Source of the DNA: Chiloscyllium plagiosum
Lineage: Eukaryota
Length of the DNA: 20,000 nucleotides
NCBI RefSeq assembly: GCF_004010195.1
Contig: NC_057718.1
Span: 89,047,458 to 89,067,457 of the forward strand
Direction of reading: 5' to 3'
The notes under the pieces are model-generated. The model had not been told where the DNA came from, did no database searches, and worked only from the letters and a program-made list of their open reading frames with translations. Below are positions 110 to 19,596 of the stretch, piece after piece (the stretch's first letter is position 1; each line of letters starts with the position of its first letter). Both the position numbers and the translations under genes were made by a program.

Positions 110-670
110 GACTTGGGTAAAGGTTTGTAGCTCGGGTGCCCGTTGCCATGGTTGTGGGTATGTTCACCGAGCTGGGAAGTTGATTTGCAAATGTTTCATC
201 CCTCATCTAGGTGACATCCTCAGTGCTTTGAAGCCTCCTGTGAAGCGCTGCTGTACTGTGTCTTATGGAATTTACTTGGTTCCATTTCTGCCGCTTCCAG
301 TTGCCGGTTCTAGTTGTAGTGGCCGGTATATTGGGGCTAGGTCAATGTGTTCGTTGATGGAGTCCATCGATGAGTGCCATGCTTCTAGGAATTCTCTGGC
401 TGTTCTCTGTTTGGCTTGACCTATGATCATTGTGTTGTCCCAATGGAATTTGTGGTCCTTGTCATCTGTGTGTATGACTACTAGGGACAGCTGGTCATGG
501 CGTTTAGTAGCTAGTTGGTGTTTGTGGATGTGGATTGCTAGTTGTCAGCTTGTTGGTCCTACATAAGTGCAGTCTTTGCATGGAATCCTGTAAATTACAT
601 TCACATGATGGGTGTAGGGCCTTTCGTCCTGCTGAGTTGTTGTCTGAGCGCGGCTGTCAGTTTATGGGCT
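110..670 (-). mobile_element. Penelope-like element 3' fragment: decayed GIY-YIG endonuclease plus pLTR
   Basis: Minus-strand translation with frameshifts gives LRQQLSRTK...NVIYRIPCKDCTYVGPTS*QLAIHIHKHQLATKRHDQLSLVVIHTDDKDHKFHWDNTMIIGQAKQRTAREFLEAWHSSMDSINEHIDLAPIYRPLQ, a typical PLE GIY-YIG domain, followed by a hammerhead-bearing 3' region. Confidence 0.9.
185..226 (-). ncRNA. Degenerate hammerhead ribozyme motif in PLE pLTR
   Basis: Minus strand: gca-CTGAGGA-tGTCaCCT-agatg-AGGGAT-GAAA-CATT-tgc. Core boxes at 217-223 and 194-197; helix I gca/tgc; helix III CGTT changed to CATT (CpG-type decay). Confidence 0.7.
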
Positions 671-1273
671 CTCGTGTGGTCGGAGAACTTAGGAATTAGT
701 CACAAAGCTGCAGAAAAGGAGGAATTTACACACATAAAGAGCTCAATGTGGTACAAGGAATCTCCACTCAGAAAGATAACCAAGGCATTCATTTGCAAAG
801 TAGGAGATCCCAACAATCTGGGTTGTATTGAACTTTTAGTGAACACCCTGTTAAAATTTAAACTTCATACCATTGCCAACCATGCAGTACTATTAGACTA
901 AGTTACCTTGACTGGAAAGACAGATCTGCAAAAATGATCTATTGCAAAAATGTGGAATGACAGTCAGAAGCGGAGGAACATCACAGCTTACATTATGACA
1001 TAATACAGATAAGAACGTTAAACATGTCAATGTTGATTGCAACCAATATTATTCACTTTTGAGCCTGTCACCCCTCTCGTGACTTCAAACTTCCTTAGAG
1101 GTGGAGAAAGGGTTTGACCACCTCCCCGTGAAAAACAGGTCCAAAAACAAACTGTTATCGACTGTCCGATCAACGGCAACTAGGAGAAATGTATTCAGGC
1201 TTCTGAGGTCCATGGTGGAACCCAAAAAGAAGAAAGAGCCTGTTGAGGTTTCCTACCGAGATATTAAAGAAAT

Positions 1274-1660
1274 GACCATCAGACCGTAAATATAGGAGCA
1301 GAATTAGGCCATTGGATAGTTGAGTCTGTTCCATCATTCAATCATGGCTGATATGTTTCCGAAACTTATTCTCCCTACTTATTCCCTTTAAATTCTCCAT
1401 TCCCTTACTAATCAAGAACCTATCTATCTCTGTTTTAATTACATTCAAAAACTTGGCCTCCACAGCCCTCTGCGGAAATGAGTTCTACAGATTAAGCACC
1501 CTCTGGCTGAAGAAATTCCTCTTCATCTCAGTTCTAAAGGGTCGTCCCGTCCCTCTGAGGCTGTGCCCCGGATCCTAGTCTCCCCTACTCTTGGAAGTGG
1601 GAACATCTTCCCATGTCCACTCTATCCAGGCCTCTCAGTATTCTGTAAGTTTCAATGAGA
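1274..1660 (-). mobile_element. CR1-type LINE 3' end
   Basis: Minus-strand translation LIETYRILRGLDRVD...RPFRTEMKRNFFSQRVLNL*NSFPQRAVEAK...KTEIDRFLISKG, followed by a CR1 3'UTR and short-repeat tail. Confidence 0.9.
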
Positions 1661-1985
1661 CTAATCCACAGACCCCAGGTAATGTTCTGGGACCTTGGAT
1701 TCAAATCCTGTCACAGCAGCTGGTGGAATTTGAATTCAATAAAAATCTGGAAGTAAGGTTCTAATGATGACCATGAATCCATTCGTAATGTTTGGAAAAA
1801 CCCATCTGGTTCACTAAGGTCCTTTAGGGAAGGAAACTGCCATCCTTACCCTGGTCTGGCCTACATGTGACTCCAGACCCACAGCAATATGGTTGACTCT
1901 TAAATGCCCTCTGGGTAACTGGGGATGAGCAATAAATACTGGCCCTGGCCAGTGGCGTCCTCATCCTATGAATGAATTTTTTAAA
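1661..1985 (+). mobile_element. 5'-truncated tRNA-derived SINE with LINE-derived tail
   Basis: B-box-like GGATTCAAATCC near 1697; core ggtctggcctacatgtgactccagacccacagcaat; tail aataaatactggccctggccagtggcgtcctcatcctatgaatgaat is shared with the LINE end at 3620-3670. Confidence 0.8.
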
Positions 1986-1989
1986 AACT

Positions 1990-2200
1990 CAGAAAATATT
2001 AGGTGTCTAGCCAAGGCTCAGTTAGTGGTATGATGGGCAGAGATTTCAGAAGAGCTTGAAGATGTCAGGTCCAGAAAATACTGCTGTCAATACCAAAGGC
2101 AGGTCAGAAGCAAAAACCCAACAGACTTGTGAGAAGAAGAATGTGTAGCACAGCCCACGCAGGAATCTTGCATTGGTCATCGTCAGCCAACAGAACAGTC
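1990..2200 (+). mobile_element. Gypsy integrase zinc-binding domain remnant (continuation of copy A)
   Basis: Translation NIRCLAKAQLVV*WAEISEELEDVRSRKYCCQYQR...PTDL*E resembles KCRARAQSSVWWPGISKELED...C..C...PTRPWE. Confidence 0.65.
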
Positions 2201-2206
2201 AATGCT

Positions 2207-2501
2207 ATGGAATCTCTACAGTGTGGAAGCAGGCCATTTGACCCATCGTGTCTGCACTGACTGGCCAAAGAAAATCCCAACCTTATCTCCTGTAATCCTG
2301 CATTTACTAATCCACCTATTACACATCCCTGAACACTATGGGCAATTTAGCCTGGCCAATCCATCTGATGTGCACATCTTTGGATTGTGGGAGGAAACTG
2401 GAGCACCGGGAAGAAACCCATGCAGACACGGGGTGGATTCAAACCCGGGTCGCTGGCGCTGTGAGGCAGCAGTGCTAACCACTGAGCCACCTGTGCCGCC
2501 C
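2207..2501 (-). mobile_element. HE1-type tRNA-derived V-SINE with internal deletion
   Basis: Minus strand begins gggcggcacaggTGGCTCAGTGGttagcactgctgcctcacagcgccagcgacccgGGTTTGAATCC (A and B boxes); V-domain gtgctccagtttcctcccacaatccaaagatgtgc; CR1-like tail. Confidence 0.9.
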
Positions 2502-2951
2502 ATGGATAGAGATAATGCTAAATGAGCAGCCATCTTTCAGTAATGAAACTTACAATCTGATCAAGTCTTCTTTACCAGTCAACCACCAAGAGTGACGAAA
2601 GACTTCCTGCCTGATCAACAATCCGAGAGAGATAACCTCCATTTGATTCCATCAGAATGACTGTAATCCCCACAGCCCCTGACATAGTCAAGGAGAACAA
2701 AACCCCTGGTCTAGGCATATTCGGGATGCTGAGAAAAGCAATTAAAAAGTCACTGGTTGATCCATGAATCCAAATATCAAAATGTTTCCGGAATGTTAGC
2801 AGGAAGGGAAGTGTGGATTATGAGAAAAATGTGATATCTCTAGGCCACCTGCATTTGACCAGACACTTAGAGATGAGGCTGTGGTAAATGTAAAAAGTTA
2901 TATTCATGATTATATACAGGGTTAATTAGTGGGGGAATACTTGGGGAAAGT

Positions 2952-3258
2952 TGTTGCATTAGGTAATGGTTCCAAAGAAGTTAATATTCATATTACACTG
3001 GCTCCACCCATTCTACTGATGTCACACACCGTATGTGGGTCAAGGCAAGGAGTTCTATTCTGGCTTTTAGAAGGAGCCGAAATATCAGTGGTAGCTCCCT
3101 AAGGTCCAGATTACACCTGATCAAATATTGCAGTACTTATTGTTGTTGTGTAATAAACCTCCTTGTTATCTCAGAACAATGCCTCATATGTAGCTAACTC
3201 GCAGTGGTATCTATATCCTCTACCACTATTCACTAGACAGACCTAAAACAAAGCAACG
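2952..3258 (+). mobile_element. Putative 3' LTR of Gypsy copy A
   Basis: Purine tract GGGGAAAG at 2943-2950, start TGTTGC at 2952, AATAAA at 3152-3157, end GCAACG at 3253-3258 (terminal inverted repeat with one mismatch). Confidence 0.6.
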
Positions 3259-3349
3259 AGAAAGGAGGATTGGGGACAGCGAACTACCTCAAATAACCCT
3301 TACCCAGTAGCACATAATAGAGTTGGCAAATCCCAGCTGGGGAAAGAAA

Positions 3350-3613
3350 CGCATTGGCAGTCCTTGCTCATGCTTGACTGGATGACCTGAGACTTCATGG
3401 AGGCCAGAGTAAATGTAGAGGACTCCCAGGGCCACTCCCTCCTGACTGTGTAACACTGTCCTATGACCTGCTGATCTGACAGGGCATATCAACAGGATGA
3501 TGACGTTAGTTGAGAGACATGATTCTGTGAATATGAGTGCATCAGTTACTGTTCATTGACTTGTCAGTGGGACAACTTTTTGAATTGTGATGACAGCCCC
3601 TTGATGTTAGTGA
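3350..3613 (-). mobile_element. LINE (CR1/L2 group) AP-endonuclease fragment
   Basis: ORF 3289..3492 contains TVLHSQEGVALGVLYIYSGLHEVSGHPVKHEQG, resembling the APE segment GGGTVVYSQEGVALGVLNIDSGPHEVSWHQVKHGQG of a common shark LINE. Confidence 0.75.
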
Positions 3614-3669
3614 TTTTTGTTTTCATTCATTCAGAGGATACGGGTCTTGCTGGGCTGGGCCAGCATTTA

Positions 3670-4488
3670 AATCTAAACTTCAATCTAAATCTAGATTTAG
3701 GTTTTATTGTTACGTGTACTCAAATACGAGGTACAACAGTACAGTTGAAAGTGTACAATGCCACCACACACAAAGTACCCCGGAATAAAATCTTAGCCTA
3801 CACTAATAGGAAAATAAAGAAATAAATGAATCAGTTCAGCACTACAGTCTTAGCATCAAAGTAGAAAAATCAATAAATTAAAAATGTTAAACAATCATGA
3901 GGGACATGGATGGGGTAAATAGACAAGGTCTTTTCCCTGGGGTGGGAGTGTCCAGAATTAGAGGGCATAGGTTTAGGGTGGGAGGGAAAGATTTAAAAGG
4001 GACCTAAGGGGCAACTTTTTCGCACAGAGGGTGGTACGTGTATGGAATGAGCTGCCAGAAGAAGTGCTGGAGGCTGGTACAATTACAACATTTAAAAGGC
4101 ATCTGGATGGGTATATGAATAGGAAGGGTTTGGAGGGATATGGGCCAAGTGCTGGCAAATGGGACTAGATTGGATTGGGATATCTGGTCGGCATGGACGG
4201 GTCAGACCGAAGGGTCTCTTTCTGTGCTGTATGTCTCTATGACTCTATTACAGTGCTTTCTTAAGCCATGGACCTCCAGACACTCCAAGCTGGGCTTTCT
4301 CCAGGAGGGTTCACTCTCCCCCAACACTGCCCATGCTCCATCGCTGCCTTTACCTCACACACCCTCTGAAAGTTAAGTAAGAAACACAAAAAAACTAAAA
4401 AGAGAGCTGAGAAAAGAAGGAAAAAAGCAGAAAGAAGAAGGGAAAGCGGGCCGAATGGATGAGATTTGGGCTTGAGACCCTGGATGCT
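3670..4488 (-). mobile_element. Non-coding retroposon with LINE-type 3' tail and (TCTAAA)-like terminal repeats; contains a CR1 insertion
   Basis: Flanked by TSD GCATTTA (3663-3669 and 4489-4495). The minus-strand tail gagtacacgtaacaataaaacctaaatctagatttagattg is shared with 4812-5058. Pyrimidine-rich 5' region; no ORF. Confidence 0.6.
3893..4248 (+). mobile_element. Well-preserved CR1 (HER1-like) 3' fragment
   Basis: Reads IMRDMDGVNRQGLFPGVGVSRIRGHRFRVGGERFKRDLRGNFFAQRVVRVWNELPEEVLEAGTITTFKRHLDGYMNRKG; tail ...tctctatgactctat. Confidence 0.92.
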
Positions 4489-4811
4489 GCATTTATTCCC
4501 TACCCCTGGTTGAGCTTGAGAGAGTGGCGCTGTGATGCCTTCTCAAACCACTGCAGTCAATCAGGTGGACTCACAATGCTATTAGGCAAGGAGCCCAGGC
4601 ATTTTGATCCCGCCACAGTGAAGGAAAGATGATATATCTCCAAGTCAAGACGGTGAGTGGCTCGGAGGTGAACTTTCACGCAATGCTGTTCCAACGTATC
4701 TACCATCTTTTCCGTTCTAGATGTTTTTGACTGTGGGTTTGGAAGGTGTTGTCCGAGGACTCTGGGTGAACTAATGAAGTGTATCTTGTAGATGGTACAC
4801 ACTGTGACTGA

Positions 4812-5058
4812 ACATAGGTTCAGATTTTCAGATTTTATTTATTGGCACGTGTACAGGAGTACAGTGAAAAGTCGACAGAGTCACCACTCTCCGGCACCAT
4901 CTTAGAAGGCAATAGTTGGAATTAAAAACATGAGCAGAAATTAAAGAATTAGAAAGGAGAGAAGGAAACCTCCTGATCACCCTCACCGCCACTGCAATGA
5001 GTCTTTAACTAGGCTGACTAATCTCACCTGCACTGGATCCATCAGCACTCTCTGCGCT
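4812..5058 (-). mobile_element. Second, shorter non-coding retroposon with the same LINE-type tail
   Basis: tttattggcacgtgtacaggagtacagtgaaaag matches ttttattgttacgtgtactc...gtacagttgaaag at 3702-3752; it interrupts the same LINE copy. Confidence 0.55.
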
Positions 5059-5479
5059 GGAGTGCTAGAGGGAGTGGGTGTTTGTGAATGTGGTGCTAGT
5101 CAAGTGGACTGCTTTGTCCTGGATAGTGGCAAGCATTTGAGTGTTGTTGGATTTGCACTCATCCAGACAAGTGGGAGTATTCCATTACACTCCTGACCTG
5201 TGCCTTTGTAGATGATGGACAGGCTTTAAGGAGTCAGGAGGTGAGTTACTGGTTGCAGTATTCCTGTCTGCCGATCTGCTCCTGTCTCCCCAGTGTTTAT
5301 ACAACAAGCCCAGTTCTGTTTCTGGTCAGTGGGTCAGGCCCAGGTTCTGGACAATGGGGGGAAATTCAGTGATGGTAATGCCATTGAAGCTGGCAATTCA
5401 TGTGAGGAGGGCGTTGCAGGGTTGACTGGGCAATGTGTCCTTTTCTTTGTTGGCCATGTTTTGTGAACTGCTCCCAGCT

Positions 5480-5790
5480 TTACAATGCCTTCTCTGAATT
5501 CTTGAACTTCATGTACATTCTCTCCCTCTTTATTCCATCACTGGTGTCACGCAGTCACCTTTTTAGGCCTCACATTCCAAATACCCTTCCCAAATTCTTC
5601 AGACTTTCTGCCTTTCTCCCCTTTGTTAAGATCCTACTGACAATCTATTCCTTTGATTAGGCTTTGGTCACCCTTCACAAATGTCTCCTTCACTGTCTTG
5701 GCATCCATTTGGTCTGATCACCCCTCCGGGAGCACTTTGGAGTGTGCTGAGAGTGTGCACCTGAAAAGTGCTAGATGAATGCAGCGACAA
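5480..5790 (+). mobile_element. Old L2-type LINE 3' end
   Basis: Decayed L2 3' pattern: ccaaatacccttcccaaattcttcagactttctgcc...ttaagatcctactgacaatctattcctttgattaggctttggtcacc... Confidence 0.6.
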
Positions 5791-6060
5791 CTCGCTATAA
5801 AATAGTGCGTTTAATGTCCCAAGGTACTTCACGGGAACATTGTCAGACAATATTTGATTTCTAAAGAGGTCTTCGACAGGCAAACCAATGTTTGGCAGAG
5901 TTGGACTGAAAGGGACCTGTTTCCATGCTTATACATCTCAATGACTCAATAATAAAAGATGTAAGAAAAATGCAGAGACTTAAGGAGGGTATTCCAAAAC
6001 TTAGCATCAAAGCAGGTGAAGGAATAACTGCATGTGGTTATGGAATTAAAATTGAGAAGG
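5785..6060 (-). mobile_element. Old L2-type LINE 3' end, tail-to-tail with the previous copy; short CR1 tail (+) inside at ~5897-5950
   Basis: caactcgctataaaatagtgcgtttaatgtcccaaggtacttcacgggaacattgtcagacaatatttga is the reverse of an L2 tail; ggagggtattccaaaacttag is the reverse of the WNSLP region. Confidence 0.6.
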
Positions 6061-7599: not shown

Positions 7600-8300
7600 T
7601 GTAGGTTAAGGATGTTACCTGTGTTGAGCCCTCTGTTTCTTGATTATGAATGCTTCCTGTTGTGTACCAAAGGCTTTAATGAACTCACAGGCTTCACAAA
7701 TGAAGAGAAATTACAGGTGGGGCATCACAACATCACCAATGTACAGTGAGAAATAAGGATTCCAGTCCATGGTGGAATCATTATTGTGGGATGAAAAAGT
7801 AACAGGATATATTGGTCTTTGGGATAGCTAGCCTTTGAGATATTGCCTTACGTTTTGTTTGATGGTACAAGATCGATTTGGCCATGGGACCCAATTACCT
7901 TCACATCTTCCAGAATCTCTTGAAACCTCCTATTGATCTGTCTCAGCCCCTTCAGAGATTCGTCTTCTAGCTGATGTATTAACCCATGGAACAATCTTAT
8001 CATTGACCATATTGTATTTACCAGTATTGCTTCTTCTCCCCAAGTCTCTGAATTCACGAATGCAGGTGGTCTCAATATTTTACATTTTGTCGTAATGCAC
8101 TGGTCGGATGTGGGACAATGCTGGAAATCTCTGATTTGAGGATTACTTACCTGCTGGAGGATCTTCTATGGTTCAGATATCATACTTTAAAGATGTTGTT
8201 GTTGGTCCATTACGCTATTTGGAGGACACTTACTCTTGAACTTCCTTCCTGGAAGATAGCTGCTCTTTGAAATGCAGACATACACATGAACATGCAAATT
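7600..8300 (-). pseudogene. Possible very old Gypsy reverse-transcriptase remnant
   Basis: Weak but collinear motifs: GEEAILVNT (cf. DEESSLLTTFNT), IRLFHGLIHQLEDE (cf. RLPFGLISAQDE), ILEDVKVIGS (cf. IVDDILVYGS), FGTQQEAFIIKK (cf. WGPEQQEAFEKIK). Confidence 0.3.
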
Positions 8301-8903
8301 ATAAGCTGGACTCAGTCCCTCAAGTGTGCAATAAAATTAATAAATATTTCCTCCTTGTGGTGTTCTGGCAGTCAATGGTTTTCTAATGAGAAGAATTAGG
8401 CTCTTTTGTACAGTATCCTCAATGCTAACACCAGGCAATCTCTTATATTTGATTGTGACATGAATCTGTAGTCATTGGTTTGGCTCCCATAGAGTCATAT
8501 GAACCCTCACTTCCTCAATCTGTTGACCTGAGTGGATTACTTCAGTTGCCCATTGTATTTGTTTGACTGGTGAAGTACACTTTCTCAGACTGTCCAAACC
8601 CCAAATCTGCTCACTCCACACCATCTCTGCCTCTGGCATTGACTGTTCTGTTTTAGAAAACAAAGGTTTGAACACTTGCACCAGTCCCGTGAAGTTCCTG
8701 TCTTCCTCTACTTTGACAATGTTTGTCAGAGAAATTAGCCCAATACGTTAGAGATCACAAAGCACAGTTCAAAGTGAAATTGACAAATGGTTTATTAGCA
8801 CGACGATATCGCGGAAGAGAAATTGACTAAGCTGAAAGAGCACAATAGTAGCCGTGTATTCTCTTCCCAGAGCTGAGGAAGAAGCCAGGTTTTATAATAA
8901 TCC

Positions 8904-9120
8904 GTTCGTACCAAGTGCCAGGTTGACCTCCGGAGGGGGGAGGCACAGGTGCCAGTCGGCCGGTGGACAGTCTTTTGGGATCGTGATTTCTGATGAAGGG
9001 CTTTTGCCCGAAACGTCGATTTTCCTGCTCCCCATATACTGCCTGACCTGCTGTGCTTTTCCAGCACCACTCTAATCTAGACTCTGGTTTCCAGCATCTG
9101 CAGTCCTTGTTTTTACCACC
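8904..9120 (+). mobile_element. Non-autonomous PLE-derived hammerhead element with 86 nt of extra 5' sequence
   Basis: Perfect 13-bp TSD TTTATAATAATCC (8891-8903 and 9121-9133); body ...gcctgacctgctgtgcttttccagcaccac...ccagcatctgcagtcc. Confidence 0.9.
8985..9022 (+). ncRNA. Minimal hammerhead ribozyme motif, catalytic core intact
   Basis: CTGATGA(8990-8996)-A-GGGC-TTTT-GCCC-GAAA(9010-9013)-CGTC; predicted cleavage after C9017; loop-less palindromic helix III; helix I only ~2 bp. Confidence 0.8.
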
Positions 9121-9262
9121 TTTATAATAATCCTGTACAATAGGGCTGATTCAAATTGGGGGGAAAATACAATGTATCTGGAAATGGAGAAATCTAATTA
9201 CAATGATGCTAATCGGAAAACAGTCATCGGATGAATGTCCTGATTCTCGATACAATGCAACA

Positions 9263-10760
9263 TCCTGACAGTATCAGTGGGTCCGGAACTTCCATTCCTC
9301 TTCACAGGTAGGTGCTAATGTCTCCTCTGAAGCAGTAAGGTGCTCCCATTGTCTTGTCCTTGGAGCAATGCTCTTGGTGGTGCCTCTCTGTCTGACCTGT
9401 TCTTTGTGTGGCTCTGGTGTTGTTGGGTTATGAGACTGCCCTCGGGGCTTTGGGACAGCCATGTTGATCTGACACTGTTAGTGGGTGCTGCGAAGTGTAT
9501 TCCCTTGTCTGCGAGTGCTGTTTGGTTTCGCTTGCCAGCTCGCTTGGTCCCTGCTGAGGCATTCTGGGTGTTTTTGGTACAGTTTGGCCAAGTTTGCTTT
9601 CCTATGTTCTGTGTGGGCCTATTATGGGTTGGCAGGGTGGCAGATCTTTTCCCACAATGTTAGACAACTTTTCCATGCCAGCATCTTTCTCCTTGGGTTC
9701 TGCCAGAAGTCTCTGAAGCTTGTGTTTTACTGGTTGCTTGTCAACTGCTTGGTTGATAATGATTTATTGATGGACCACTGTTTTGACAGCTGTTTCCTTC
9801 TGGACCAGTTAATCTCTGGGAGGTTTTGGACCTCCTCCACAACTTCACTTGAGGTTCAGGCATGTATGCGGTCTCAAAAGTGAAGTTGATTGAATGCGAA
9901 TAATGTACATATTTTAACCATTTTCTGTGTTGTGTTAGAGTGTAATGCGTAGCATTTCTATCTTTATGGTACCTATTTCATCTGTACTATGTAGTCTTAC
10001 CTCTGTAGGCCACACCTTCTGCATCTTCAGTCATGGTACATTGACTGATAGAACTGTAAGGTTTGCGCGTGTATCAAGCACAAAGTTAACAGGATGTCCA
10101 TTATCCAAACAATTTCTGCATGTTCTGGCTCATCCAGATTAGTCAGTTCCCCTGAGAGTACCTCAGACATCTTCTTCAATGGAGGTACCTCATCAAAGCA
10201 GGATTGTTTTTCTCTATCGGAACTGTGTGTTTTACTGTGCACAGCTCTTTACACGCGAGACCAGCAGCACTGTTCTGAAATTGCATCTGATGTCTGCATA
10301 AGTGACCTACAGTTTTACAAATATACAATGGACATAGCCTGTACAAGTGAGCATTTGTAATCCTGCAGCGTTGACACTGGTTTGTAGCAGCAGGTATTTT
10401 GATTGTTCCTTGTGTCTCCTTGCATTGTCCCTCTCTAGGATGCCCATACCTTTTAAATATAATGGGATTTCATCAAGAATTTTAGCAGCAATCCTGGCTC
10501 TTATTATTTCTGATTTCATAGCTCCACATTCATAGCTTTCCACCGATCTGTGGGGCTCGTAAGTAAAATCGTCTAAAGATTTCAATGGAAGCTAAACTAC
10601 TCTGTTACATATTTGAGGATACATCCGAAACCCAGCGTAAAACTCCTTGCCTCCATTCACAAACTGTGTCTGACAGCAGAAACCAGTGTAACATGAACAT
10701 TAACTCCTTCACAACAAGAACTTAATGTGTTAAGAACACTCCCCGTCAGGTATACCTTGA
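9263..10760 (-). mobile_element. Decayed Gypsy (Mag/K02A2.6-like) gag-zinc knuckle-protease, copy B
   Basis: Gag SLDDFTYEPHRSVESYECGAMKSEIIRARIAAKILDE (cf. ESVDAFI.DL.RL.E.CEYG.LK.ELIRDRIVVGI.D); knuckles CQRCRITNAHLYRLCP..ICKTVGHLC (10295-10376); protease NGHPVNFVLDTRANLTVLS (~10046-10102). Confidence 0.85.
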
Positions 10761-11170
10761 CTGTCCATCTTTCCTTTCCCATTTGAGTTTGACTCTATGC
10801 CCTCTTGTCTGAGATCTCATGTTGATCCTGAACAAATGGGAGCCAGCATATCAATTTTCTTGATGTTCTTTATTTCCTCACAGGATGACAGTACATCAGG
10901 CATACAGTACAGAAAAGGCCATTCGATCCAGCCAATCCATCCTCTAATGAGTCTCCTCCATTAAATACTTGTCTAGCTTCCCTTACAAGTATCAATATGA
11001 CTAACTTTAACACTCCTTGTGACAGGGAACCTCACCATTCTTTGTGTAATTTGCTATTGCAATTCTTGCAACTATCTTAAATCGATGGCCTATGATTAGG
11101 CTCTTCCACTCAACAGGATACACTCTACGTTTATTTGCTCCATTGTAATCTTTCACAATTTGAAAGACGT

Positions 11171-12083
11171 CAGCAGGTAAACGGGCTGACGGGTAAGTGA
11201 AATTCAATCTGAATAAATGTGAGGTGATGCACTTGGGCAGGACAAACAATGGAAAGGGAATATGTGATGGACCCTGGGGAGCACAGAGGAGCAGAGTGAC
11301 TTTGACGTGCCTTAAGGTATCCGGGCAGATGAATAAAATGATTAAGGCGACATATGGGTTACTTGCATTTATTAGTTGAAGCACAGGGTTAAAGAATAGG
11401 TGGGTTATGCAGGTCATTAATTCTGATTTCTCTCCACAGATGCTGTCAGACCTGCTGAGCTTTTCCAGCAATTTCTGTTTTGTTTCTGATTGACAGCATC
11501 CGCAGTTCTTTCGGGGGTTATGCTGGAACCATATAAGGTATTGATTAGGCCACAGCTAGATTATTGTGAGCAGTTCTGTGATCCACATTATAGGAAGGAT
11601 GTGCTAACACTGGAGAGGGTGCAAAGGAGATTTACCAGGACGTTGCCTGGGCTGGAGAGTTACGAACAGAGATATTCAGACTGGGGTCGTTAAGCTTCGA
11701 GCAGAGGAAATTGAGAAGGGACATGGTTGAGATGTACAAAGTTGTGAGGAATGTGGTCAGGGTAGGCAGGTAGAAACGTTTCCCCTAGACAGAGGGATCA
11801 ATAAACAGGGTACATAGATTTAAGGAACAGGACAGAAAGTGCAGTGAAGATGTGAGGAAAAATCTTTTCACCAAGACGTTGGAGAGAATTTGGAACTCAG
11901 TGCCTGAAAGGGTGGTAAAGGTAGAACATCTTGGAAGAATTAAGAAGTATTTAGATTTGCACCTGTGATGCAAAAACATACAAGGCTATGGGCCAGGTGC
12001 TGGGAAAAATGAGATTGGAATGGTAAGGATTGGACCCGACGGGCCAAAGGGTGGTTTCTCTGTGCTGCAGATCTCTATGTCAT
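11171..12083 (+). mobile_element. CR1 3' fragment (RT C-terminus + tail)
   Basis: KFNLNKCEVMHLGRTN; YKVLIRPQLDYCEQFCDPHYRKDVLTLERVQRRFTRTLPGL; tail ...ctgtgctgcagatctctatg. Confidence 0.92.
11414..11513 (+). mobile_element. PLE pLTR 3' fragment (hammerhead truncated away)
   Basis: ctctccacagatgctgtcagacctgctgagcttttccagcaatttctg; TSD GGGTTATGC at 11402-11410 and 11515-11523. Confidence 0.8.
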
Positions 12084-12496
12084 TTATTAGTTCACCCTTC
12101 AGCCTTCCCTTTCAAGAAAAAAGGGACCTGGCCTGTTAATCTATTCCTGATATGTTCACCCAACACATTCCCACCATCTTCATGATAAATCATCCTTACA
12201 TCCTTTTGGTAAATGACAACCAGAACTGCACATGTTATCCAGGCTGTGCTCTAACCTAAGATTTGATGCAGATTAAATATAACATCACTACCCTTCAATG
12301 GACTCCATCTCAAAATAAATGTTAGTGGTGGTTTAGTTTCTTATGACCTTGCTTTCAACATTTAGAGATTGGTGCATTTCTACCTGAAACCCCTTTGTTG
12401 CGTGGCCCTACGTAGACTTGTACCTCACATGTAATAAGTGCCCTCCCTTTCCTTCTTAGAAAATGCACTTCCTTACACTTGGTCTGCATTCAACTG

Positions 12497-13235
12497 GAAG
12501 TTGCTCATTTTGGAAGGGAGTAAAAATTGAGAAGAACTGCAGAAAGCTGAAACACAAAGGTACTTGGGGGTACTTGTGTCTGAAACACAGAAGGAAAGCA
12601 CACTGGTGCAGCAGAGAATCCAGAAGGCTAATGGAATGTTGGCCCTTATTTCAAAGAGGTTGAGGTTTAAGAGTTGGGAAGTCTCACTTCAACTGCGCAA
12701 GGTGCTGTTGAGACCACGTCTGGAGTAGTTTTGGTCTGCTTATTCAAGGAGAGATATTGTTTTATTTGGAGACAGTTCAGAGAAGATTCACTAGGATGAT
12801 CCCCAGTGTGGAGGGATGAGTAAAGGCCAAACAAGTTGGGACTCTACTCACCAGAGTATAAAAGAATGACAAGCGAACTCACTGAAACATAGAGGATTCT
12901 TAAAGGCCTTGAAAGGGAATGCTGAGAAGACATTTCCTGTCATGGGGAAGTCTAGGTCCAGGGAAACAGCCTCAGAATAAAGGGGTGTTAATTTAAGATT
13001 GAGATGCAGAGAAATTTCTTCTCGAGAGAGTAGTGAGCATTTGGAACTCCTTGCCACAAAGAGCTGTATATATTTAAGGCTGAGCTGGATAGATTCTTGG
13101 TCGGTCAGGAAATCAGGGGTTATGGGGAAAACGCAGGAAAGTAGATGTGAGGACTGTCAGGGCAGCTACAATCTTAGTGAATGGCTCGAGGTCCAAATAG
13201 CCTACTCCTGTTCCTATTTCTTATGACCTTAGAGT
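12497..13235 (+). mobile_element. CR1 3' fragment
   Basis: EVAHFGR...KANGMLALISRG...KVLLRPRLE...LETVQRRFTRMIPSV; tail gcctactcctgttcctatttcttatgacctta. Confidence 0.9.
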
Positions 13236-13981
13236 CTGATTACTTCCGTTGCCACTTGTCTGTCTGTTCTCTCACAAGTTCTCTCATAATTCATCACTGT
13301 CCTTTTCAGTCTTGAGTATCTCCAACAATTTGGTGCAATCTTCAAATTTAGAAATTGTGCTATTGATTCCAAAGACTAAATCATTAATAGAACCCATGAA
13401 CTGAACTGATCCTAGCACTGATCTTGTAGAACACAACTTACCATTTTCTACCAATTAACAACTCCCCTTTATTTCCACTTTCTGCTCTCTGGTCTGAAGC
13501 TAGCTAGCAGTCCATTCTGCTGTCTGTCCTCTCACACAGCATTCTCTGATCCTTATTTCTTATTCTATTATAGTGCATCTTATCAAAGAACTTCTGAAAA
13601 TTCTGAAAAATTACTTCCACAGCATTATCATTATTGACACTCTTTGTCACCCTCCCAAAAGTTTTAATCAGATTGTCCAAGCAAGATTTTTCATTTTGAA
13701 ATTTGTGCTGACTACTTTGTTATTATTTTTCTTGTTTCTATGTTCCCCTAATCTCTCCTTCAGTCTTGATTTCATTATTTCCCTGTCACTGACCAGTTTA
13801 TATTCTGTTCTCCTTATCAAATATAGGAATTCCAGTCTTCTGCAACTGTAACAAATGATTGCATATCGGTCGTCATGGTTCTGGTATTTCTTCTATAGGT
13901 TTGTTGCAAATATAAGGGCTTTATCTTTGAAGTTTAGTTTTGTCAATATATCCTTTTTAAGGAACTTAATTGCACTGTCTA

Positions 13982-14357
13982 GTCATAGAGTCTTAAAGCA
14001 TGGAATCAGACCCTTTCGTCCAACTTGTCCATGCTGACTAAAGTTCCCAAACTAATCCCATTTACCACTACATCTACCACTTCCTCTGGTAGTTTGTTCC
14101 ACATAGGCACCATCCTCTGTGTGAAAAGGTTGCCCCTCAGTACTCTTTCTCCTCTCACCTTGAAATTACGCACTCTAGTTTTGAACTCCCCAACCCTAGG
14201 GAAAAGACCTTTGGTGTTCACCTTATCTATGCCCCTCATGATTTTATAAAGCTCTATAAGGTCTCCCCTCAGCCCCGACGCTCCCAGGGACAGAAGTCTC
14301 AGCTTACCCTACCTCTTCTTATAAGTGAAGCACTTCAGTCCTGGTAATATCTTTGTC
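13982..14357 (-). mobile_element. CR1 3' fragment
   Basis: ORF 14006..14239 MRGIDKVNTKGLFPRVGEFKTRVRNFKVRGERVLRGNLFTQRMVPMWNKLPEEVVD; gtcatagagtc tail. Confidence 0.9.
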
Positions 14358-14412
14358 TCATTCACTGTCATGTCTACCTGTTCTACTTCCCTGAATATTG
14401 AACTGAATAATT

Positions 14413-14516
14413 GTATTCTGAAGAAGGGTCACTGGACCCAAAATGTTAACAGCTTTCTCTCTACAGATGCTGCCAGACCTGCAGAATTTTCCCAACAATT
14501 TCTGTTTTTGTTTCTA
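14413..14516 (+). mobile_element. PLE pLTR fragment with decayed hammerhead
   Basis: CTGAAGA(14418-14424)-A-GGGTC-ACTG-GACCC-aAAA-tGTT; both core lesions are at former CpG sites; TSD AATAATT at 14406-14412 and 14517-14523. Confidence 0.8.
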
Positions 14517-14823
14517 AATAATTATTTAGTAACTCTGCCAACTTTTTAATGCTACCTGTGCCATTATCATCTCCATCCCTTAATGGGTCTAGTTTATCAC
14601 AGCCGCCTGTTTATTTATTTTACCGACAAAATACTTTATTATTTCTTGATAATTTACTTCAATAGTTCCTCTTTGCCTTCCTTATTCTTTTTGTCTAACT
14701 TCTCTCTGAACCTCTTCAAATTATCTTTGGTCATGCACTGCTTTAATGTCTAATTATTAAATGTCTCTCTTCTAACCTGCGATTGTTCCCTGCCATCTTT
14801 ATTCATCTGTTGAGTCTCACTAG

Positions 14824-15771
14824 TATCATGACAATGGATTGTATCCCTGAATCACATACAGATGCATTGAATTTTTGAGTATAATGTGTTTTAAAAAAAT
14901 AGAAGCCAAAAGATGGCTGAGAATGTAAATTCTGTGGCTGTCTTGTAAATCCTGTGTGGATCATACTGAGTCCTGAGAGAGTACATGAAATGTCACGCTC
15001 AAGGTGTGTCAAGGGAATGTCAGACAGCAATACTGTAAAGGGAGAGATGCCATTCAACAAAACTGTATTATGATCTCCTGTGGCTACAGAGATAAGGAAA
15101 GGCTGATTAACCCCACTCAACAGAGTTGGGGGCTGTGTTCTAGATTCCATACAAAGTATGAGTTGAAAAAAAGGACATTTCTGGGTTTGTCTTCTGTCCT
15201 TCTGTTTTCTTGAATGCTGATGCGTTGTGTGTTAGCTTGGGGTTTGAGCACCCATTGTGCTAAAGAGTGTTGAGAAAGGACCCAGTTGAGAACTTCCAAG
15301 AGGCTCCCCTGTGTCTACTGGTCACAAGAAATAATGTCTCTGTCTAATTACTGAAACAAGGTGAGTTGGCAAAGTCATTGCTGAAGGAAACTGGACAAAA
15401 TCTTTTCAGCTAACTGCAGAACGAAGATCGCCAATCAAATACTCAACTGTCAAAGTCACCAGGATCACCCATCTTAACAGCAGGCGATATTTCACAATGT
15501 TTTCATCATGACATCCCGAAAACTGACTCACCTTTTGTTTGACACTTTGGTCTCACTTCTCATTTCTAATTTGTGTGTGTGTTGTGCTTTTTTTTTCAGT
15601 AGCTAATAAAGTCATTGTTTAACTCAAGAAAGCTGGTTAAATTGGCTCCTTTTAAAATGCAAATACTTTTCGGGTTGGAGGGATCCTGTTTTAATTAACC
15701 TTGTTGCGATGAACTGAGGGAGAGGATAAATAGAATAGTGGAGCCATTTCATCCCTCTGCATCTGTGAATA
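14824..15771 (+). mobile_element. Probable solo LTR (Gypsy/ERV type), ~950 bp
   Basis: Non-coding block that cleanly interrupts the old CR1; starts TATCATGAC (decayed TGTCATGAC); (GT)n then AATAAA at ~15605; U5-like end gagccatttcatccctctgcatctgtgaata. TSD not seen. Confidence 0.5.
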
Positions 15772-16277
15772 TACCCATTCAGCGTCCATCACTTGGGGAT
15801 CAGTTGTAACACCAGCTTAATTTGTTCTTCCTGCACCCTAAATGTCTGAAATGTTTTCCTTTTTTTGTATTACATTACATTGCTTATGCTAATAAAATTC
15901 CTCATTTTATTTTCACAAGTTCCATTCTCAGCCCCTCACATCAGCTTTTCTCCAATCTATTAGCCTTTTCTTCATATTAATATCTTATACTATCCTCATC
16001 TTTACATGTATTCGTAAATTGCCCCTCTTACCCAGAAGTTCCCTTATCTTTACCTCTTTTATCAGTTCTGGTTTATTCCATGTTACTCGATCCAGTAATG
16101 AATCTTCCCCTTGTTGGGCTTTTTGCATATTGGAAAGAGGTCCTGCACATATTGTAGTAACTCTATTCCCTTATCCCCCTTACCTGCCCCTTCTCCTAAT
16201 ATTGACCTTTAGAGTCTTAAGCTGAAAATGTGTTGCTGGAAAAGCACAGCAGGTCAGGCAGCATCCAGGGAACAGGA

Positions 16278-16314
16278 GAATCGACGTTTCGGGCATAAGC
16301 CCTTCTTCAGGAAT
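16278..16314 (-). ncRNA. Minimal hammerhead motif, intact core
   Basis: Minus strand attc-CTGAAGA-A-GGGC-TTAT-GCCC-GAAA-CGTC-gatt; boxes at 16304-16310 and 16287-16290. Confidence 0.8.
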
Positions 16315-16315
16315 G

Positions 16316-16351
16316 ATTCCTGAAGAAGGGCTTATGCCGAAACGTCGATTC
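16316..16351 (+). ncRNA. Minimal hammerhead motif, intact core, helix II shortened by one C
   Basis: attc-CTGAAGA(16320-16326)-AG-GGC-TTAT-GCC-GAAA(16339-16342)-CGTC-gatt. Confidence 0.75.
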
Positions 16352-16489
16352 TCCTGTTCCCTGGATGCTGCCTGACCTGCTGCGCTTTTCCAGCAACACA
16401 TTTTCAGCTCTGATCTCCAGCATCTGCAGACCTCACTTTCTCCTTTAGAGTCTTAATACAAGCTCAAGCCAGACCTCCAGATTACTGTT

Positions 16490-16708
16490 TAGTAAATTTT
16501 CACCCAGAGGATGATAGAAGTCAGGAACACACTGCCTGAGAAGCAGGTTCTGTCACAATGTTTTTGAAGCAACTGGATGAGCATTTAACATTCCAAGGTG
16601 TGGTAGATTATAGATCAAGTGCAGACAATGCTTTGGTGTTTGTTGGTTGGCATGGACAAGGCAGGCTGAAGAGCCTGTTTCTGTGCTGTATGGTTCTATG
16701 ACTGTATG
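16490..16708 (+). mobile_element. CR1 3' fragment
   Basis: ttttcacccagaggatgatagaagtcaggaacacactgcctgag...ggctgaagagcctgtttctgtgctgtatggttctatgact. Confidence 0.8.
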
Positions 16709-17442
16709 CCTAGCATTTATATGACTGTAAGGCTAGAGAGCAACACGGTCTGTGCTGTGCAGGTTCCAACCTTCCAGTAGATTCTGAGCATATGGTTACT
16801 AAGGTCACAGTTAAATCACAGCATACCTCAGAGGCTTATCTATATAATTATCAAACCTCTATCTCTGCACTTTTGTATCCAATTAACATCCTCCATGATT
16901 ATTATGCCATTCCTTAATTTATGTCCTTCGCTCTTCCTCCAGCTCTCTTCCATTGTTAGCTCATCTGTAGACTACACCTATTGGTATGATTGATTCTTTA
17001 TTGTCTCTTACTCCTATTCATTGACTCTATTTTGTTGTACTGTCAACGACAGCATTTTTTTTTCTACTATTATTATGTCAACCCTAATATCGATAATTCC
17101 TACACCAGGGCGGTCTCTCCCTGTGCCACAGTGAAAGCTGAGGACACCAGCCACCCAATATGTTTGTGGCTCGGTCCACAGATGGGTCAAAGTGATGGTC
17201 ACCTTTTCCATGCTAAACAGGATAGACTCTTGAGTTAAAAGAGTGAAACTTGAGGTAGAAGAGTTTAGTTGTTGTCCTGCTACCTCTGGAGTGGCAAAGT
17301 TTACCGATTGCATGGATTTCTCAGTGAGTCACAGATTTTCTGAGTTGGTTTTCCATTGGAACTGGTTTCAGACATTGAAAGAGAGTAGAGATTCCAGTTT
17401 CCTTCCTGTGATCCGCCCCGGTGCTAAGTCCTGACTCTGTTC

Positions 17443-17722
17443 AGAGTCATACAGATGCACAGCATGGAAAAAGACCCTTCGGTCCAACCCCTCCATGCTG
17501 ACCAGATATCCCAACCAAATCTAGTCCCACCTGCCAGCACCCGGCCCATATCCCTCCAAACCCTTCCTATTCATATACCCATCCAGATGGCTTTTAAAAG
17601 TTGCAATTGTACCAGCCTCCACCACTTCCTCTGGCAGCTCATTCCATACACGTACCACCCTCTGTGTGGAAAATGTTGCCCTGTAGGTCTCTTTTATATC
17701 TTTCCCCTCTCACCCTAAACCA
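17443..17722 (-). mobile_element. Well-preserved CR1 3' fragment, same subfamily as 3893-4248
   Basis: Near-identical reverse complement, e.g. cccatatccctccaaacccttcctattcatatacccatccagatg. Confidence 0.92.
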
Positions 17723-17855
17723 CATCATTCCAGATGAAGGAATTGTGCCCAATACGTCAACTTTCCTACTCCTCGGATGCTGCCTGACTTGCTGTGCTAT
17801 TTCAGCACCACACTTTTCGACTCTGACTCTCCAGCATTTGCAGTGCTCACTTTCT
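17723..17855 (+). mobile_element. PLE pLTR fragment with inactivated hammerhead
   Basis: cattc-CAGATGA-aggaattgtgccc-AATA-CGTC (17731-17758), then cctcggatgctgcctgacttgctgtgc...ccagcatttgcagtgctcactttct. Confidence 0.85.
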
Positions 17856-18194
17856 ACACTTCCCAATATATCACCATTTAAACAAGACACCTCCTTTTTG
17901 TTTTTGTTTTCCACAGCAAAGGCTATAACTTCACCTTGTGGCACTGCACTTGCCATGAGTTTGAGGCACAGACCTGGACCAGCTTTTCCAGAGCCTGCCC
18001 TCTTTCTGGATTCACTCCCTTTCTTTTCAGTTGCTGCAAGTCAACAATTGGATCCCAGCATGAAAATAAAAGAAACAGAAAAGGCAGTGAGAGAAGAGAG
18101 TGCCATTGGACAGAGGAAGGAAATTACAGTCTTGGAATAATCTCAATCTTCATTCAAAGAGGGAGGAGCAGCAGCAGCTTCAGAAGCTCATGGG

Positions 18195-18268
18195 TCAAGA
18201 GTAGAGTGGTGCTGGAAAAGCACAGCAGGTCAGGCAGCATCCGAGGAGCAGGAGAATCGACGTTTCGG
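18195..18268 (-). mobile_element. PLE pLTR fragment truncated inside the hammerhead
   Basis: gtgctggaaaagcacagcaggtcaggcagcatccgaggagcaggagaatcgacgtttcgg; only the GAAACGTC half remains. Confidence 0.85.
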
Positions 18269-18388
18269 ATTCAGACAATAGGGCTGTTCTGAATGGTAGG
18301 AGGACCAGGCTCCTCCTTCAGATGTTCCAGTGCTCCTCATTGGTTCAGCAAATGAAATTCATGCACCATTTTGACAGACAGATAGAAG

Positions 18389-18457
18389 CATGTGCAGTTT
18401 TTTGCAGACACCGGTGAACATGTGCAGTGCTTGCTGACACCGAGGGGCACGCGCAGT
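18389..18457. repeat. Degenerate ~30-bp tandem repeat (2.3 copies)
   Basis: catgtgcagttttttgcagacaccggtgaa / catgtgcagtgcttgctgacaccgagggg / cacgcgcagt. Confidence 0.6.
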
Positions 18458-18599
18458 AGGCTCTGTAGAAATGCTGGTGTAACTGACAGATTCAACTGGC
18501 CAAATGCCAATAGAAGGAAAAAAGGGTAGAGCCACAATTTTGTTTCACCTCCCCACCCCGGGTTGGACATAGCCGCGCATGCTCCTCGTTATTCTCCTT

Positions 18600-19280
18600 A
18601 GCCTCACCCCTCATGATTTTTCAAATCTCAATAAGGTCATCCCTCAACCTCCTCCACTCCAGTGAAAAAGTCCCAGCCTCTCCCTATAACTCAAACCCTC
18701 CAGTCCTGGCAACGTCCAGGTAAATCTTTATCGAACCCTCTCTAGTAGTATTCTTCCTATTACAGGGCGACCAGAACTGTACTCCATACTCCAAAAAATG
18801 GCCTCACCAACACCCTGTACAACCTCAACATAGAACAAAGAAAATTTACAATCCAGGAACAGGCCATTCAGCCCTTCAAGCCTAAGCGGATCCAAATCCC
18901 GTCTAAATCTATCGCGCAATTCCTGAATCTGTATCCCTCTGCTTTCCACTTACTCATGCATCTGTCCAGATGCACCTTAAATGAATCTACAGTCTCTGCC
19001 TCTACCTCTGCTGGCAATGCGTTCCAGGCAACTATCACCATCTGTGTAAAGTACTTTCCGTGTGCATCCCCAACATGATGACCCAACTCCTGTACTCAGC
19101 ATGTGATCAATGAAGGCAAGTGTGCTAAACACCTTCTTCACCCCTGTCTACCAGTGATGGAACTTTCAAGAACAATGAACATGAACACCCCTGGGTCTCT
19201 GTTCTACAACACGACCCAGGGCCCTACCATTACCTGAACAAGTCTTGCCCTCCTTTATTTTAGCAAAATGCAACCCCTTA
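18600..19280 (-). mobile_element. CR1 RT C-terminal fragment with a nested CR1 3' end (18832-19070)
   Basis: Host reads MLRLYRVLVRPFFGVWSTVLVAL (cf. LYRTLVRPLLEYCVQFWSP); the nested copy YFTQMVIVAWNALPAEVEAETVDSFKVHLDRCM is flanked by TSD CAACAT (18826-18831 and 19071-19076). Confidence 0.88.
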
Positions 19281-19474
19281 CTTACATCCATACCTCTCTC
19301 ATACACACGCTCTCTCTCAGGCATACACATACACCACCCTCTCAACACATTCACCCTCTCACAGGCTCATACTCCATCACAATCACACTTTACCAAGCAT
19401 GCACACATGCAAATACAGGTACACGCTCTCTTACGCGCAGTCTTATGCACAAACTCATATGCACACACACACAC
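19281..19474. repeat. Degenerate (CA)/(CT)-rich low-complexity tract, probably PLE UTR
   Basis: catacacacgctctctctcaggcatacacatacaccaccctctc...gcacacacacacac. Confidence 0.6.
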
Positions 19475-19560
19475 TTTTTTGATGAAGGGCCTTTGCCCAA
19501 AACGTCGATTTTCCTGCTCCTCGGATGCTGCCTGACTTGCTGCAGCACCACACTCTCAAT
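19475..19560 (+). mobile_element. PLE pLTR fragment with decayed hammerhead
   Basis: tTGATGA-A-GGGC-CTTT-GCCC-aAAA-CGTC-gatt (19479-19506), followed by the shared body. Confidence 0.85.
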
Positions 19561-19596
19561 CCTAAACCTCTTACCCTCTAGTTCTAGACTCCCCCA

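Follow-up and report, generated by a model that had tools for sequence, protein, structure and literature searches.

The stretch of DNA analysed here (the window) comprises 20,000 nucleotides of the genome of the shark Chiloscyllium plagiosum (contig NC_057718.1, positions 89,047,458 to 89,067,457). It holds eight units of 75-130 nt that belong to two subfamilies, A and B, and, at its two ends, fragments of two Penelope-like elements (PLEs), one of the Poseidon and one of the Neptune type (Table 1). A ninth motif-bearing site, at 223-190 on the minus strand, is no separate unit but the terminal part of the Poseidon fragment. All seven hammerhead motifs and both truncated ends that had been listed in an earlier, sequence-only reading of the window were found again, at the same positions and on the same strands.

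Table 1. Features of the window (numbered from its first nucleotide).
Feature	Position	Strand	Remarks
Broken, 5'-truncated Poseidon-type PLE copy	150-669	-	part of the GIY-YIG endonuclease, then its own pLTR hammerhead and a tail
Poseidon pLTR hammerhead, minimal and decayed	190-223	-	boxes kept, helix III palindrome lost
Other moderately repeated sequence, ~80 nt	8904-8985	+	upstream of the hammerhead, inside the same duplication; origin unexplained
Family A unit, intact minimal hammerhead	8985-9120	+	core 8990-9017, predicted cut after C9017; tail present
13-bp duplication, exact	8891-8903 and 9121-9133	+	0 of ~288 random pairs as long
Family B stub	11414-11514	+	5' end ~4-5 nt before the inferred cut site; tail present
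12-bp duplication, 1 mismatch	11402-11413 and 11515-11526		flanks the family B stub
Family B unit	14416-14513	+	5-bp helix II, G12 lost; without tail
Possible 10-bp duplication, 1 mismatch	14403-14412 and 14514-14523		borderline, p 0.017-0.10
Inverted arm, family A unit, intact hammerhead	16221-16314	-	core 16310-16283; without tail
Direct arm, family A unit	16316-16441	+	core 16320-16346; helix II lacks one C
15-bp duplication, exact	16206-16220 and 16442-16456	+	flanks the head-to-head pair
Decayed family A unit	17727-17858	+	tail present; adjoins LINE-like fragment; no significant duplication
Family A stub	18195-18268	-	5' end within helix II, 10 nt short of the cut site; without tail
Decayed family A unit	19476-19552	+	C3 and G12 changed; 8-nt internal loss; without tail
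Short piece of another repeat	19553-19599	+	continues the 17443-17721 LINE-like family; separates the 19476 unit from the Neptune piece
5'-truncated Neptune-type PLE copy	19600-20000	+	last 67+ endonuclease codons, pyrimidine-rich 3' region; runs off the window

The motifs are indeed minimal type I hammerheads of the Penelope kind, as had been proposed: besides the catalytic boxes, an unpaired extra base occurs between positions 9 and 10.1 in all seven cores, the palindromic 15.2-16.2 in five of them, and the closing pair G10.1-C11.1 in all six aligned copies of families A and B, while helix I consists of four pairs (2+2) plus a U-U mismatch. A strict scan (CUGANGA, helix II of at least 3 bp, GAAA and CGUH) gave two matches in the window, at 8990 (+) and 16310 (-), against none in each of 100 dinucleotide shuffles, and a relaxed scan for core and stem without CGUH gave three (shuffle mean 0.23, maximum 2). 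Integrity had been overestimated, with three cores reported as intact; only two of the seven are fully so when the helices are included. The boxes (CUGANGA, GAAA, U16.1 and H17) are unchanged in four cores, two of which are damaged elsewhere (16320 + in helix II, 223-190 - in helix III), and the others are broken at U4, G12 and A14 (17731), at C3 and G12 (19479) or at G12 (14418). The loss of G12, which affects three of the seven cores and falls at a CpG, looks like CpG decay. A scan of the window with Rfam gave no hammerhead model up to E=10; its 16 matches were all at chance level or to a hairpin only, and the hairpin look-alikes fall on the inverted pair at 16221-16441. Exact-pattern scans for the core found none in metagenome, prokaryote-genome or viral contigs, and a 19-base tail pattern that occurred at 67 prokaryote loci was taken as chance, the longest alignment to the window being 47 bases. 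The bases in front of the core are too degenerate to count as initiator-like, and that reading was rejected.

Variation of helix II with retained pairing had been taken as a sign of structural conservation. In the main family, however, none of the four pairs has changed on both sides, and the covariation score (eight pairs in the six copies in the window) is reached by 182 of 500 shuffles; the helix differences that had been quoted are those between three different families. Folding predictions for the trimmed motif place the active dimer 11-18 kcal/mol below the best alternative dimer in stability. A lone copy would require a second one for helix III and is probably inert, and for any transcript of the inverted pair the predicted fold is a single long hairpin, in which the core is buried.

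The Poseidon piece aligns in register with the proteins P0002, P0004 and P0007 over 669-604, 652-314 and 317-150 (tblastn, E 2e-50 to 2e-52), is 83% identical to Chiloscyllium proteins and carries a stop and frameshifts. Its hammerhead is directly linked to its ORF, both here and in the database proteins P0002 and P0004-P0008, which read through the same hammerhead sequence after the endonuclease; the true 3' end of this copy probably lies a few tens of bases further. We assign the copy at 150-669 to the Poseidon clade in part because P0002 has no Cys linker. The Neptune piece is 75% identical to residues 383-449 of P0001 (E 6e-25), a protein that contains RT, a C-x4-C-x2-C linker and GIY-YIG, although the piece itself lacks the GIY-YIG motif. 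Pfam returned no family for any of three window fragments; their identity is drawn instead from homologous proteins. Both pieces, which had been seen as GIY-YIG donors of two PLE types, are thus real, but they are dead fragments: being 5'-truncated, devoid of RT and either broken or without GIY-YIG, they cannot be donors. Contig depth over the Neptune body reaches 1.8-2.8 million (19633-19990), so longer truncated PLE copies are common as well. The unit at 19479 and the Neptune piece were considered as a partial tandem and rejected as such, because another repeat lies between them; its joint with the LINE-like family (17720 to 19572) occurs in 5, 1 and 2 contigs, with a loose end behind 17721. 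Neither the contigs nor protein, locus or pattern searches yielded a sequence that bridges families A and B with a coding parent. Of the searches made with the frame of the Neptune 3' region for a link to a hammerhead, one gave nothing and the other three unrelated repetitive proteins, and the Neptune protein had no confirmed match among metagenome and viral contigs.

The 5' ends of the units are not random. Six of the eight begin 2-7 nt before the core and none exactly at the cut site, and the 5' boundary at 14416 is shared by 491, 452 and 487 contigs in three DNA runs, with flanks of low agreement before it (0.37-0.38 in the three runs). The expectation that 5' ends would cluster just upstream of the ribozyme was therefore borne out, and pure random truncation is insufficient to explain this pile near the ribozyme front. 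The 3' ends form two classes ~30 nt apart, with the tail present in four of the eight units and missing in the other four; the family 3' boundary at 16444 occurs in 501, 477 and 636 contigs. Over the units, contigs reach a depth of 10^5-10^6, compared with 14-130 in single-copy bins (values that represent depth, not copy number), so that the "dense cluster" is not special to the window, the units being extremely abundant genome-wide. The end of a family A unit precedes the start of a family B unit, at whatever spacing, in 28, 14 and 19 contigs, which indicates that head-to-tail pairs exist elsewhere. The ~80 nt in front of the intact unit at 8985 have no second match within the window and a contig depth of ~17,000-75,000 at 8947-8950.

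Flanking target-site duplications, which had been proposed for the short copies, were confirmed in part. When a duplication is called clear if at most 2 of ~288 random pairs are as good, three of the seven insertion units tested have one (12-15 bp), one is borderline and three have none. The best documented insertion is the head-to-head pair, the arms of which are joined across one base and differ at 2 of ~94 positions (98% alike), and which carries a 32-nt tail (16410-16441) on the direct arm only. In a related shark (run X9, record 21) position 16205 runs straight on into 16442 without intervening letters, and this empty site keeps a single copy of the 15-bp duplication. In record 15 of X12 the match ends at 16205, beyond which 256 letters remain, and the depth is 31.1, the same as at 16596, whereas X1 contigs continue into both arms. 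The pair at 16221-16441 is a recent insertion that is missing from a related shark. The claim that the short units are mobilised, most likely by PLE machinery, held, and one insertion is now demonstrated by an empty site.

We consider it probable (roughly 0.7) that the units are dispersed end-pieces of PLEs, i.e., a pseudo-LTR with an optional tail, that were inserted by PLE reverse transcriptase and endonuclease, with the hammerhead as an uncut and decaying passenger. By analogy with the anole PAc element (PMC11167929), the PLE endonuclease would nick the target and reverse transcription of uncleaved RNA would begin at either of two internal sites, which lie downstream of the core by ~95 and 125 nt. 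Synthesis of the cDNA would then pass the ribozyme and halt at the front edge of helix I, which may be where the RNA itself starts or where the cDNA anneals or folds back; such fold-back would yield the head-to-head pair. The hammerhead would ride along uncut and decay afterwards. The even split between units with and without a tail matches the two start sites of reverse transcription reported in PMC11167929, where ribozyme cleavage was also dispensable in vitro. The lack of units beginning at the cut site is what is expected if uncut RNA is the template; together with 5' ends before the core and the absence of tandems, it suggests that cleavage and rolling circles are likely not their source. 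Furthermore, the one-sided tail, the inverted arm and the duplication at 16206-16456 are the arrangement described for PLE insertions, in which a one-sided tail and an adjacent shorter inverted copy occur with a target-site duplication (PMC8557442; PMC3846280). Some observations do count against end-pieces: the lack of a coding parent linked to families A and B, the Neptune piece that ends at the window edge before any hammerhead, the units without a significant duplication, the A-B contigs elsewhere, and the 5' ends, whose non-random positions would be expected from a dedicated short RNA but are not predicted by simple truncation.

Such an RNA is the basis of a reading in which families A and B are non-autonomous and SINE-like: master copies would give rise to a short RNA running from helix I to the tail, and PLE proteins would copy it in trans. 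The sharp common 5' and 3' boundaries with unrelated flanks, the same "full" length of six of the eight units, sequence differences at the subfamily level and a parent that is not linked in the window would all fit, as do reports that the pLTR sequence alone drives integration in trans (PMC3846280) and that pLTRs contain internal promoters (PMC2377424). A normal PLE transcript from an upstream pLTR, reverse-transcribed from a nearby tail site, would give the same boundaries, however. ARAGORN finds no tRNA genes (although it can miss degenerate heads), the units starting directly with helix I, and RNA reads map to both strands without any accumulation of starts or ends, a weak test in a poly(A) single-cell library. 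We regard the SINE-like origin as possible but unlikely, and it is similarly doubtful that the ~125-base units are full copies of a dedicated short RNA, i.e., a self-propagating class of hammerhead-headed SINEs in sharks that is run by Penelope proteins. If true, they would rank among the most abundant vertebrate repeats that bear a ribozyme, their insertion would have continued since closely related species split, and their transcripts could pair in trans, with active dimers inside host RNAs.

It seems much less plausible that the units are monomer offspring of non-LTR retrozymes, in which tandem copies cleave as dimers and circularise and the circles are reverse-transcribed. The hammerheads are of type I, pLTR-derived tandem retrozymes are reported from one cartilaginous fish and monomer copies are common in some families (bioRxiv 10.64898/2026.07.22.740005), and a few head-to-tail joints of mixed family do occur elsewhere. 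The window is, however, without any tandem array, no unit is permuted at the cut site, the cores are minimal and without the contacts between loops 1 and 2 typical of retrozymes (PMC7229834), and the predicted active dimer is the weaker one by the margin given above. The one-sided tail and the inverted arm are PLE signatures. The label "retrozyme-like" is thus not supported, since no head-to-tail tandem is present in the window and the core lies at the 5' end and is followed by a PLE tail, which is the anatomy of a pLTR. Least probable, and very improbable in our view, is that longer PLE insertions were reduced to solo units when their repeats recombined or the sequence between these was deleted, as has been proposed for rotifer solo pLTRs without duplications (PMC3846280) and as the three units lacking a clear duplication might suggest. 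Recombination between direct repeats does not produce the nearly identical head-to-head arms of the youngest insertion, and two stubs begin inside the motif, directly beside a duplication or flank.

Dispersed single minimal hammerheads (min-HHRs) of truncated metazoan PLEs were described in 2014 by Cervera and de la Pena (PMC4209133), with thousands per genome in fish, coelacanth and frog. The units in the window share with these the core, the unpaired 9/10.1 base, G10.1-C11.1, the palindromic remnant of helix III and a short helix I, as well as the occurrence of mostly single motifs, ascribed to truncated PLEs, and of close pairs on opposite strands. They differ in that helix II of family A has 4 bp, compared with 7-8 bp for Schistosoma, and in that abundance appears far higher here; the consulted portions of PMC4209133 do not name sharks or describe 5' ends piling at helix I. 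Our literature search (Repbase and Dfam being outside its scope) returned no shark-specific description of a PLE hammerhead, the sole shark match being the origin of the name, and nothing for Penelope with hammerhead and cartilaginous or for a non-autonomous Neptune with target site duplication.

Natural insertions in such numbers, with sharp ends and with empty sites in related species, form good material for the study of PLE transposition, in particular of its unsolved steps: the starting point of the template RNA, the origin of the inverted arm and whether any cleavage by the hammerhead takes place. Should the short units prove to have a mobile RNA of their own, PLEs would have a clean SINE-like partner. 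Animal non-LTR retrozymes resemble the units in being non-coding and PLE-related, in their type I hammerhead and in probably being moved by PLE proteins, but what defines them is circular RNA and a tandem arrangement in which every unit has a hammerhead (PMC7229834; bioRxiv 10.64898/2026.07.22.740005), whereas the units here are single or inverted, have a minimal core and are not permuted at the cut site. EN+ PLE insertions, reported as a 5'-truncated copy with an inverted neighbour, a one-sided tail of 30-40 bp and a short duplication (PMC3846280; PMC8557442; PMC11167929), are matched by 16206-16456, which has a shorter inverted arm, a 32-nt tail confined to one arm, a palindromic junction, a duplication and an empty site, and the two classes of 3' ends ~30 nt apart agree with PMC11167929, although no ORF lies between the repeats and the duplications are longer (12-15 bp) than in the rotifer examples (8-10 bp). 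As it stands, the window is a shark example of the class of dispersed PLE hammerheads described in 2014.

The hammerhead motifs in the window are real and were correctly identified, while their reading as a retrozyme system is over-interpreted. A strict minimal-hammerhead scan of the window returned two motifs with CGUH (8990 + and 16310 -, named by core coordinate) versus none in each of 100 shuffles. All seven core-like motifs of the sequence-only reading were recovered by the motif scan, and the copy-by-copy check reduced the three cores proposed as intact to these two (see table); the Rfam scan of the window reported no hammerhead. The loss of G12 is in every case a CG to CA change. In family A, one of two subfamilies (A and B) of short hammerhead units, helix I consists of two pairs, a U-U mismatch and then at most two additional pairs. 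The suggested covariation of helix II holds between families only, since the six aligned A/B copies contain no two-sided changes and their covariation score was matched by 182 of 500 shuffles.

Hammerhead cores in the window and their state
Core	Strand	State
8990	+	intact
16310	-	intact
16320	+	boxes kept; helix II one C short
223	-	boxes kept; helix III palindrome gone
17731	+	G12 lost plus further core bases
19479	+	G12 lost plus further core bases
14418	+	G12 lost

The eight motifs or stubs other than 223-190 belong to family A (n = 6) and family B (n = 2). Their 5' ends do cluster just upstream of the ribozyme, as had been suggested: six of the eight lie 2-7 bases upstream of the core, the remaining two lie one 10 and the other ~4-5 bases upstream of the predicted cut, and none begins at that cut. 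At the 3' end, a ~30-base tail is present on four units and absent from the other four. The description of the copies as flanked by target-site duplications was borne out in part, i.e., for three of the seven insertion units tested (12-15 bp), with one borderline (10 bp) and three without. A tRNA gene search of the window found none. Immediately 5' of the intact 8990 hammerhead, inside a 13-bp duplication, lie ~80 GC-rich, moderately repeated bases (8904-8985), which may represent upstream sequence carried over from the parent, the result of a template switch or a captured fragment. Another repeat (~8720-8903 and 9121-9330), presumably LTR-like on the minus strand, apparently hosts this insertion, with depth to several thousand at 9190-9225. 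LINE-like 3'-end fragments, which we take to be CR1-like, occur at 3970-4246 and 17443-17721 (89% identical, opposite orientation) and at 13981-14350, 11500-12080, 12470-13220 and 18590-19100; two hammerhead units adjoin such pieces. Two diverged copies (68-78%) of a repeat without family label lie in opposite orientation at 2957-3078 and 10617-10727.

Sequencing reads were compared over 8700-19990 of the window in four of 24 listed runs (three DNA, one RNA), with 439,607, 361,000 and 469,053 contigs aligned from the DNA runs. The head-to-head pair at 16221-16441 (two family A arms, minus then plus, with a 15-bp duplication at 16206/16442) was inserted recently, adding 221 bases together with the duplication: in run X9, from a related organism (~2-4% divergent), one 824-base contig connects 16205 straight to 16442 and retains a single copy of the duplication, a contig of run X12 behaves likewise as far as its visible extent, and contigs of run X1, whose organism label is that of the best-matching runs, extend into both arms. 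The arms differ at two of ~94 positions, with one base at the junction and a 32-base tail on one arm only. Among the joints listed for the three DNA runs there was no empty site for the other units, and contigs of all three break within the 14416 unit, suggesting that it is shared by their organisms. At 11189 contigs of both related organisms cease matching and the same-label run goes on to 11228, possibly another lineage-specific indel.

DNA contig depth, which gives no copy number and reflects an incomplete count, was 10^5-10^6 over the units versus 14-130 in single-copy bins; the family is therefore genome-wide and the window is not the special, dense cluster it had been taken for. Per DNA run, ~450-490 contigs cease matching at a shared 5' boundary (14416) and 480-640 at a shared 3' boundary (16444), beyond which the flanks agree poorly (0.33-0.38). 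Among the joints listed, a family A end is followed by a family B start in 28, 14 and 19 contigs of the three DNA runs and tail-to-tail pairs occur in 25, 18 and 26, which counts against a purely solitary picture. At the joints 16444->14416 and 16444->18206, tens of contigs carry a second unit, in head-to-tail or tail-to-tail arrangement, directly after the 3' end of the first, a hint that new copies insert beside existing ones. Family B contigs of all three DNA runs have a few common bases (ending ATCAG) just before the 14416 boundary, which with the next bases would complete a four-pair helix I and which resemble an initiator or splice acceptor. From the RNA run 5,526 of 12,955,460 reads aligned, on both strands and with none in single-copy flanks; their starts and ends revealed no site shared by many molecules, a weak test because a poly(A) single-cell library is unable to show circles or cyclic-phosphate ends.

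For both endonuclease fragments the matching proteins (1 + 10 matches; 71-83% identity) come from Chiloscyllium punctatum, Hemiscyllium ocellatum and Rhincodon typus, which identifies the DNA as that of a carpet-shark-type fish. The fragment at 669-150 (-), interrupted by a stop and frameshifts, matches reverse transcriptase (RT) plus GIY-YIG proteins across three frames, in an alignment that extends through the hammerhead at 223-190; the database proteins P0002 and P0004-P0008 terminate in or read across the equivalent sequence. This motif is thus best read, from the protein alignments, as the terminal repeat (pLTR) of a 5'-truncated Poseidon-type Penelope-like element (PLE). P0003 and P0008, predicted Chiloscyllium MAP3K7 and NT5DC1 isoforms, end in Poseidon-type endonuclease sequence, which in P0008 reaches the hammerhead; this may be exonisation or a gene-model artefact. 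The fragment from 19600 (+) matches residues 383-449 of the Neptune-type protein P0001, whose Cys linker is the one ascribed to Neptune elements (PMC8557442, in part). Between this piece and the unit at 19476-19552 lie ~45 bases of another repeat (joint 17720->19572), so that the two are not contiguous. These fragments had been proposed as GIY-YIG donors at the window ends; neither contains RT and, therefore, neither could supply the machinery. Protein-level and contig searches with the Neptune protein and its 3'-region frame found no ORF of a parent element for family A or family B.

An inverted shorter arm, a one-sided tail and a duplication form the insertion signature of endonuclease-bearing PLEs, according to the portions consulted of PMC3846280 and PMC8557442. 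For the anole element PAc, the corresponding part of PMC11167929 places the start of reverse transcription at two internal sites located ~110-120 bases downstream of helix II; the stretch between these sites forms the tail, uncut RNA serves as the main template and the hammerhead cleaves only with the protein. Like PAc in that account, the A/B units have the same core-to-end distance and the same two end classes, from which we infer that uncut pLTR RNA is copied by target priming and that copying would halt at the leading edge of helix I. Either transcription starting within the pLTR or fold-back of the cDNA would account for such a halt; an internal promoter is known in Drosophila Penelope (PMC2377424, in part). 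Folding predictions give a single hairpin (about -194 to -202 kcal/mol, either strand) for the entire inverted insertion, and for the trimmed intact motifs they favour the best alternative dimer over the active one by 11-18 kcal/mol, which makes hammerhead activity at these loci unlikely without help.

Our literature search, with repeat databases outside its scope, found no description of shark PLE hammerheads. A 2026 preprint (bioRxiv 10.64898/2026.07.22.740005), in the part consulted, traces the origin of non-LTR retrozymes to pLTRs, with one cartilaginous fish among the organisms covered; families A and B may be listed in its supplementary tables. Non-LTR retrozymes are tandem, usually with canonical hammerheads, and expressed as circles, as far as PMC7229834 was covered; unlike these, the A/B units in the window are not arranged in tandem, and no motif lies within any tandem repeat of the window, so that the retrozyme-like interpretation is not supported. 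The useful details are the empty site of the head-to-head pair and the sharp 5' edge. In the sections consulted, Cervera and de la Pena (2014; PMC4209133) reported that minimal hammerheads occur singly in the thousands per genome and also as opposite-strand pairs, with truncated PLEs as their probable origin.
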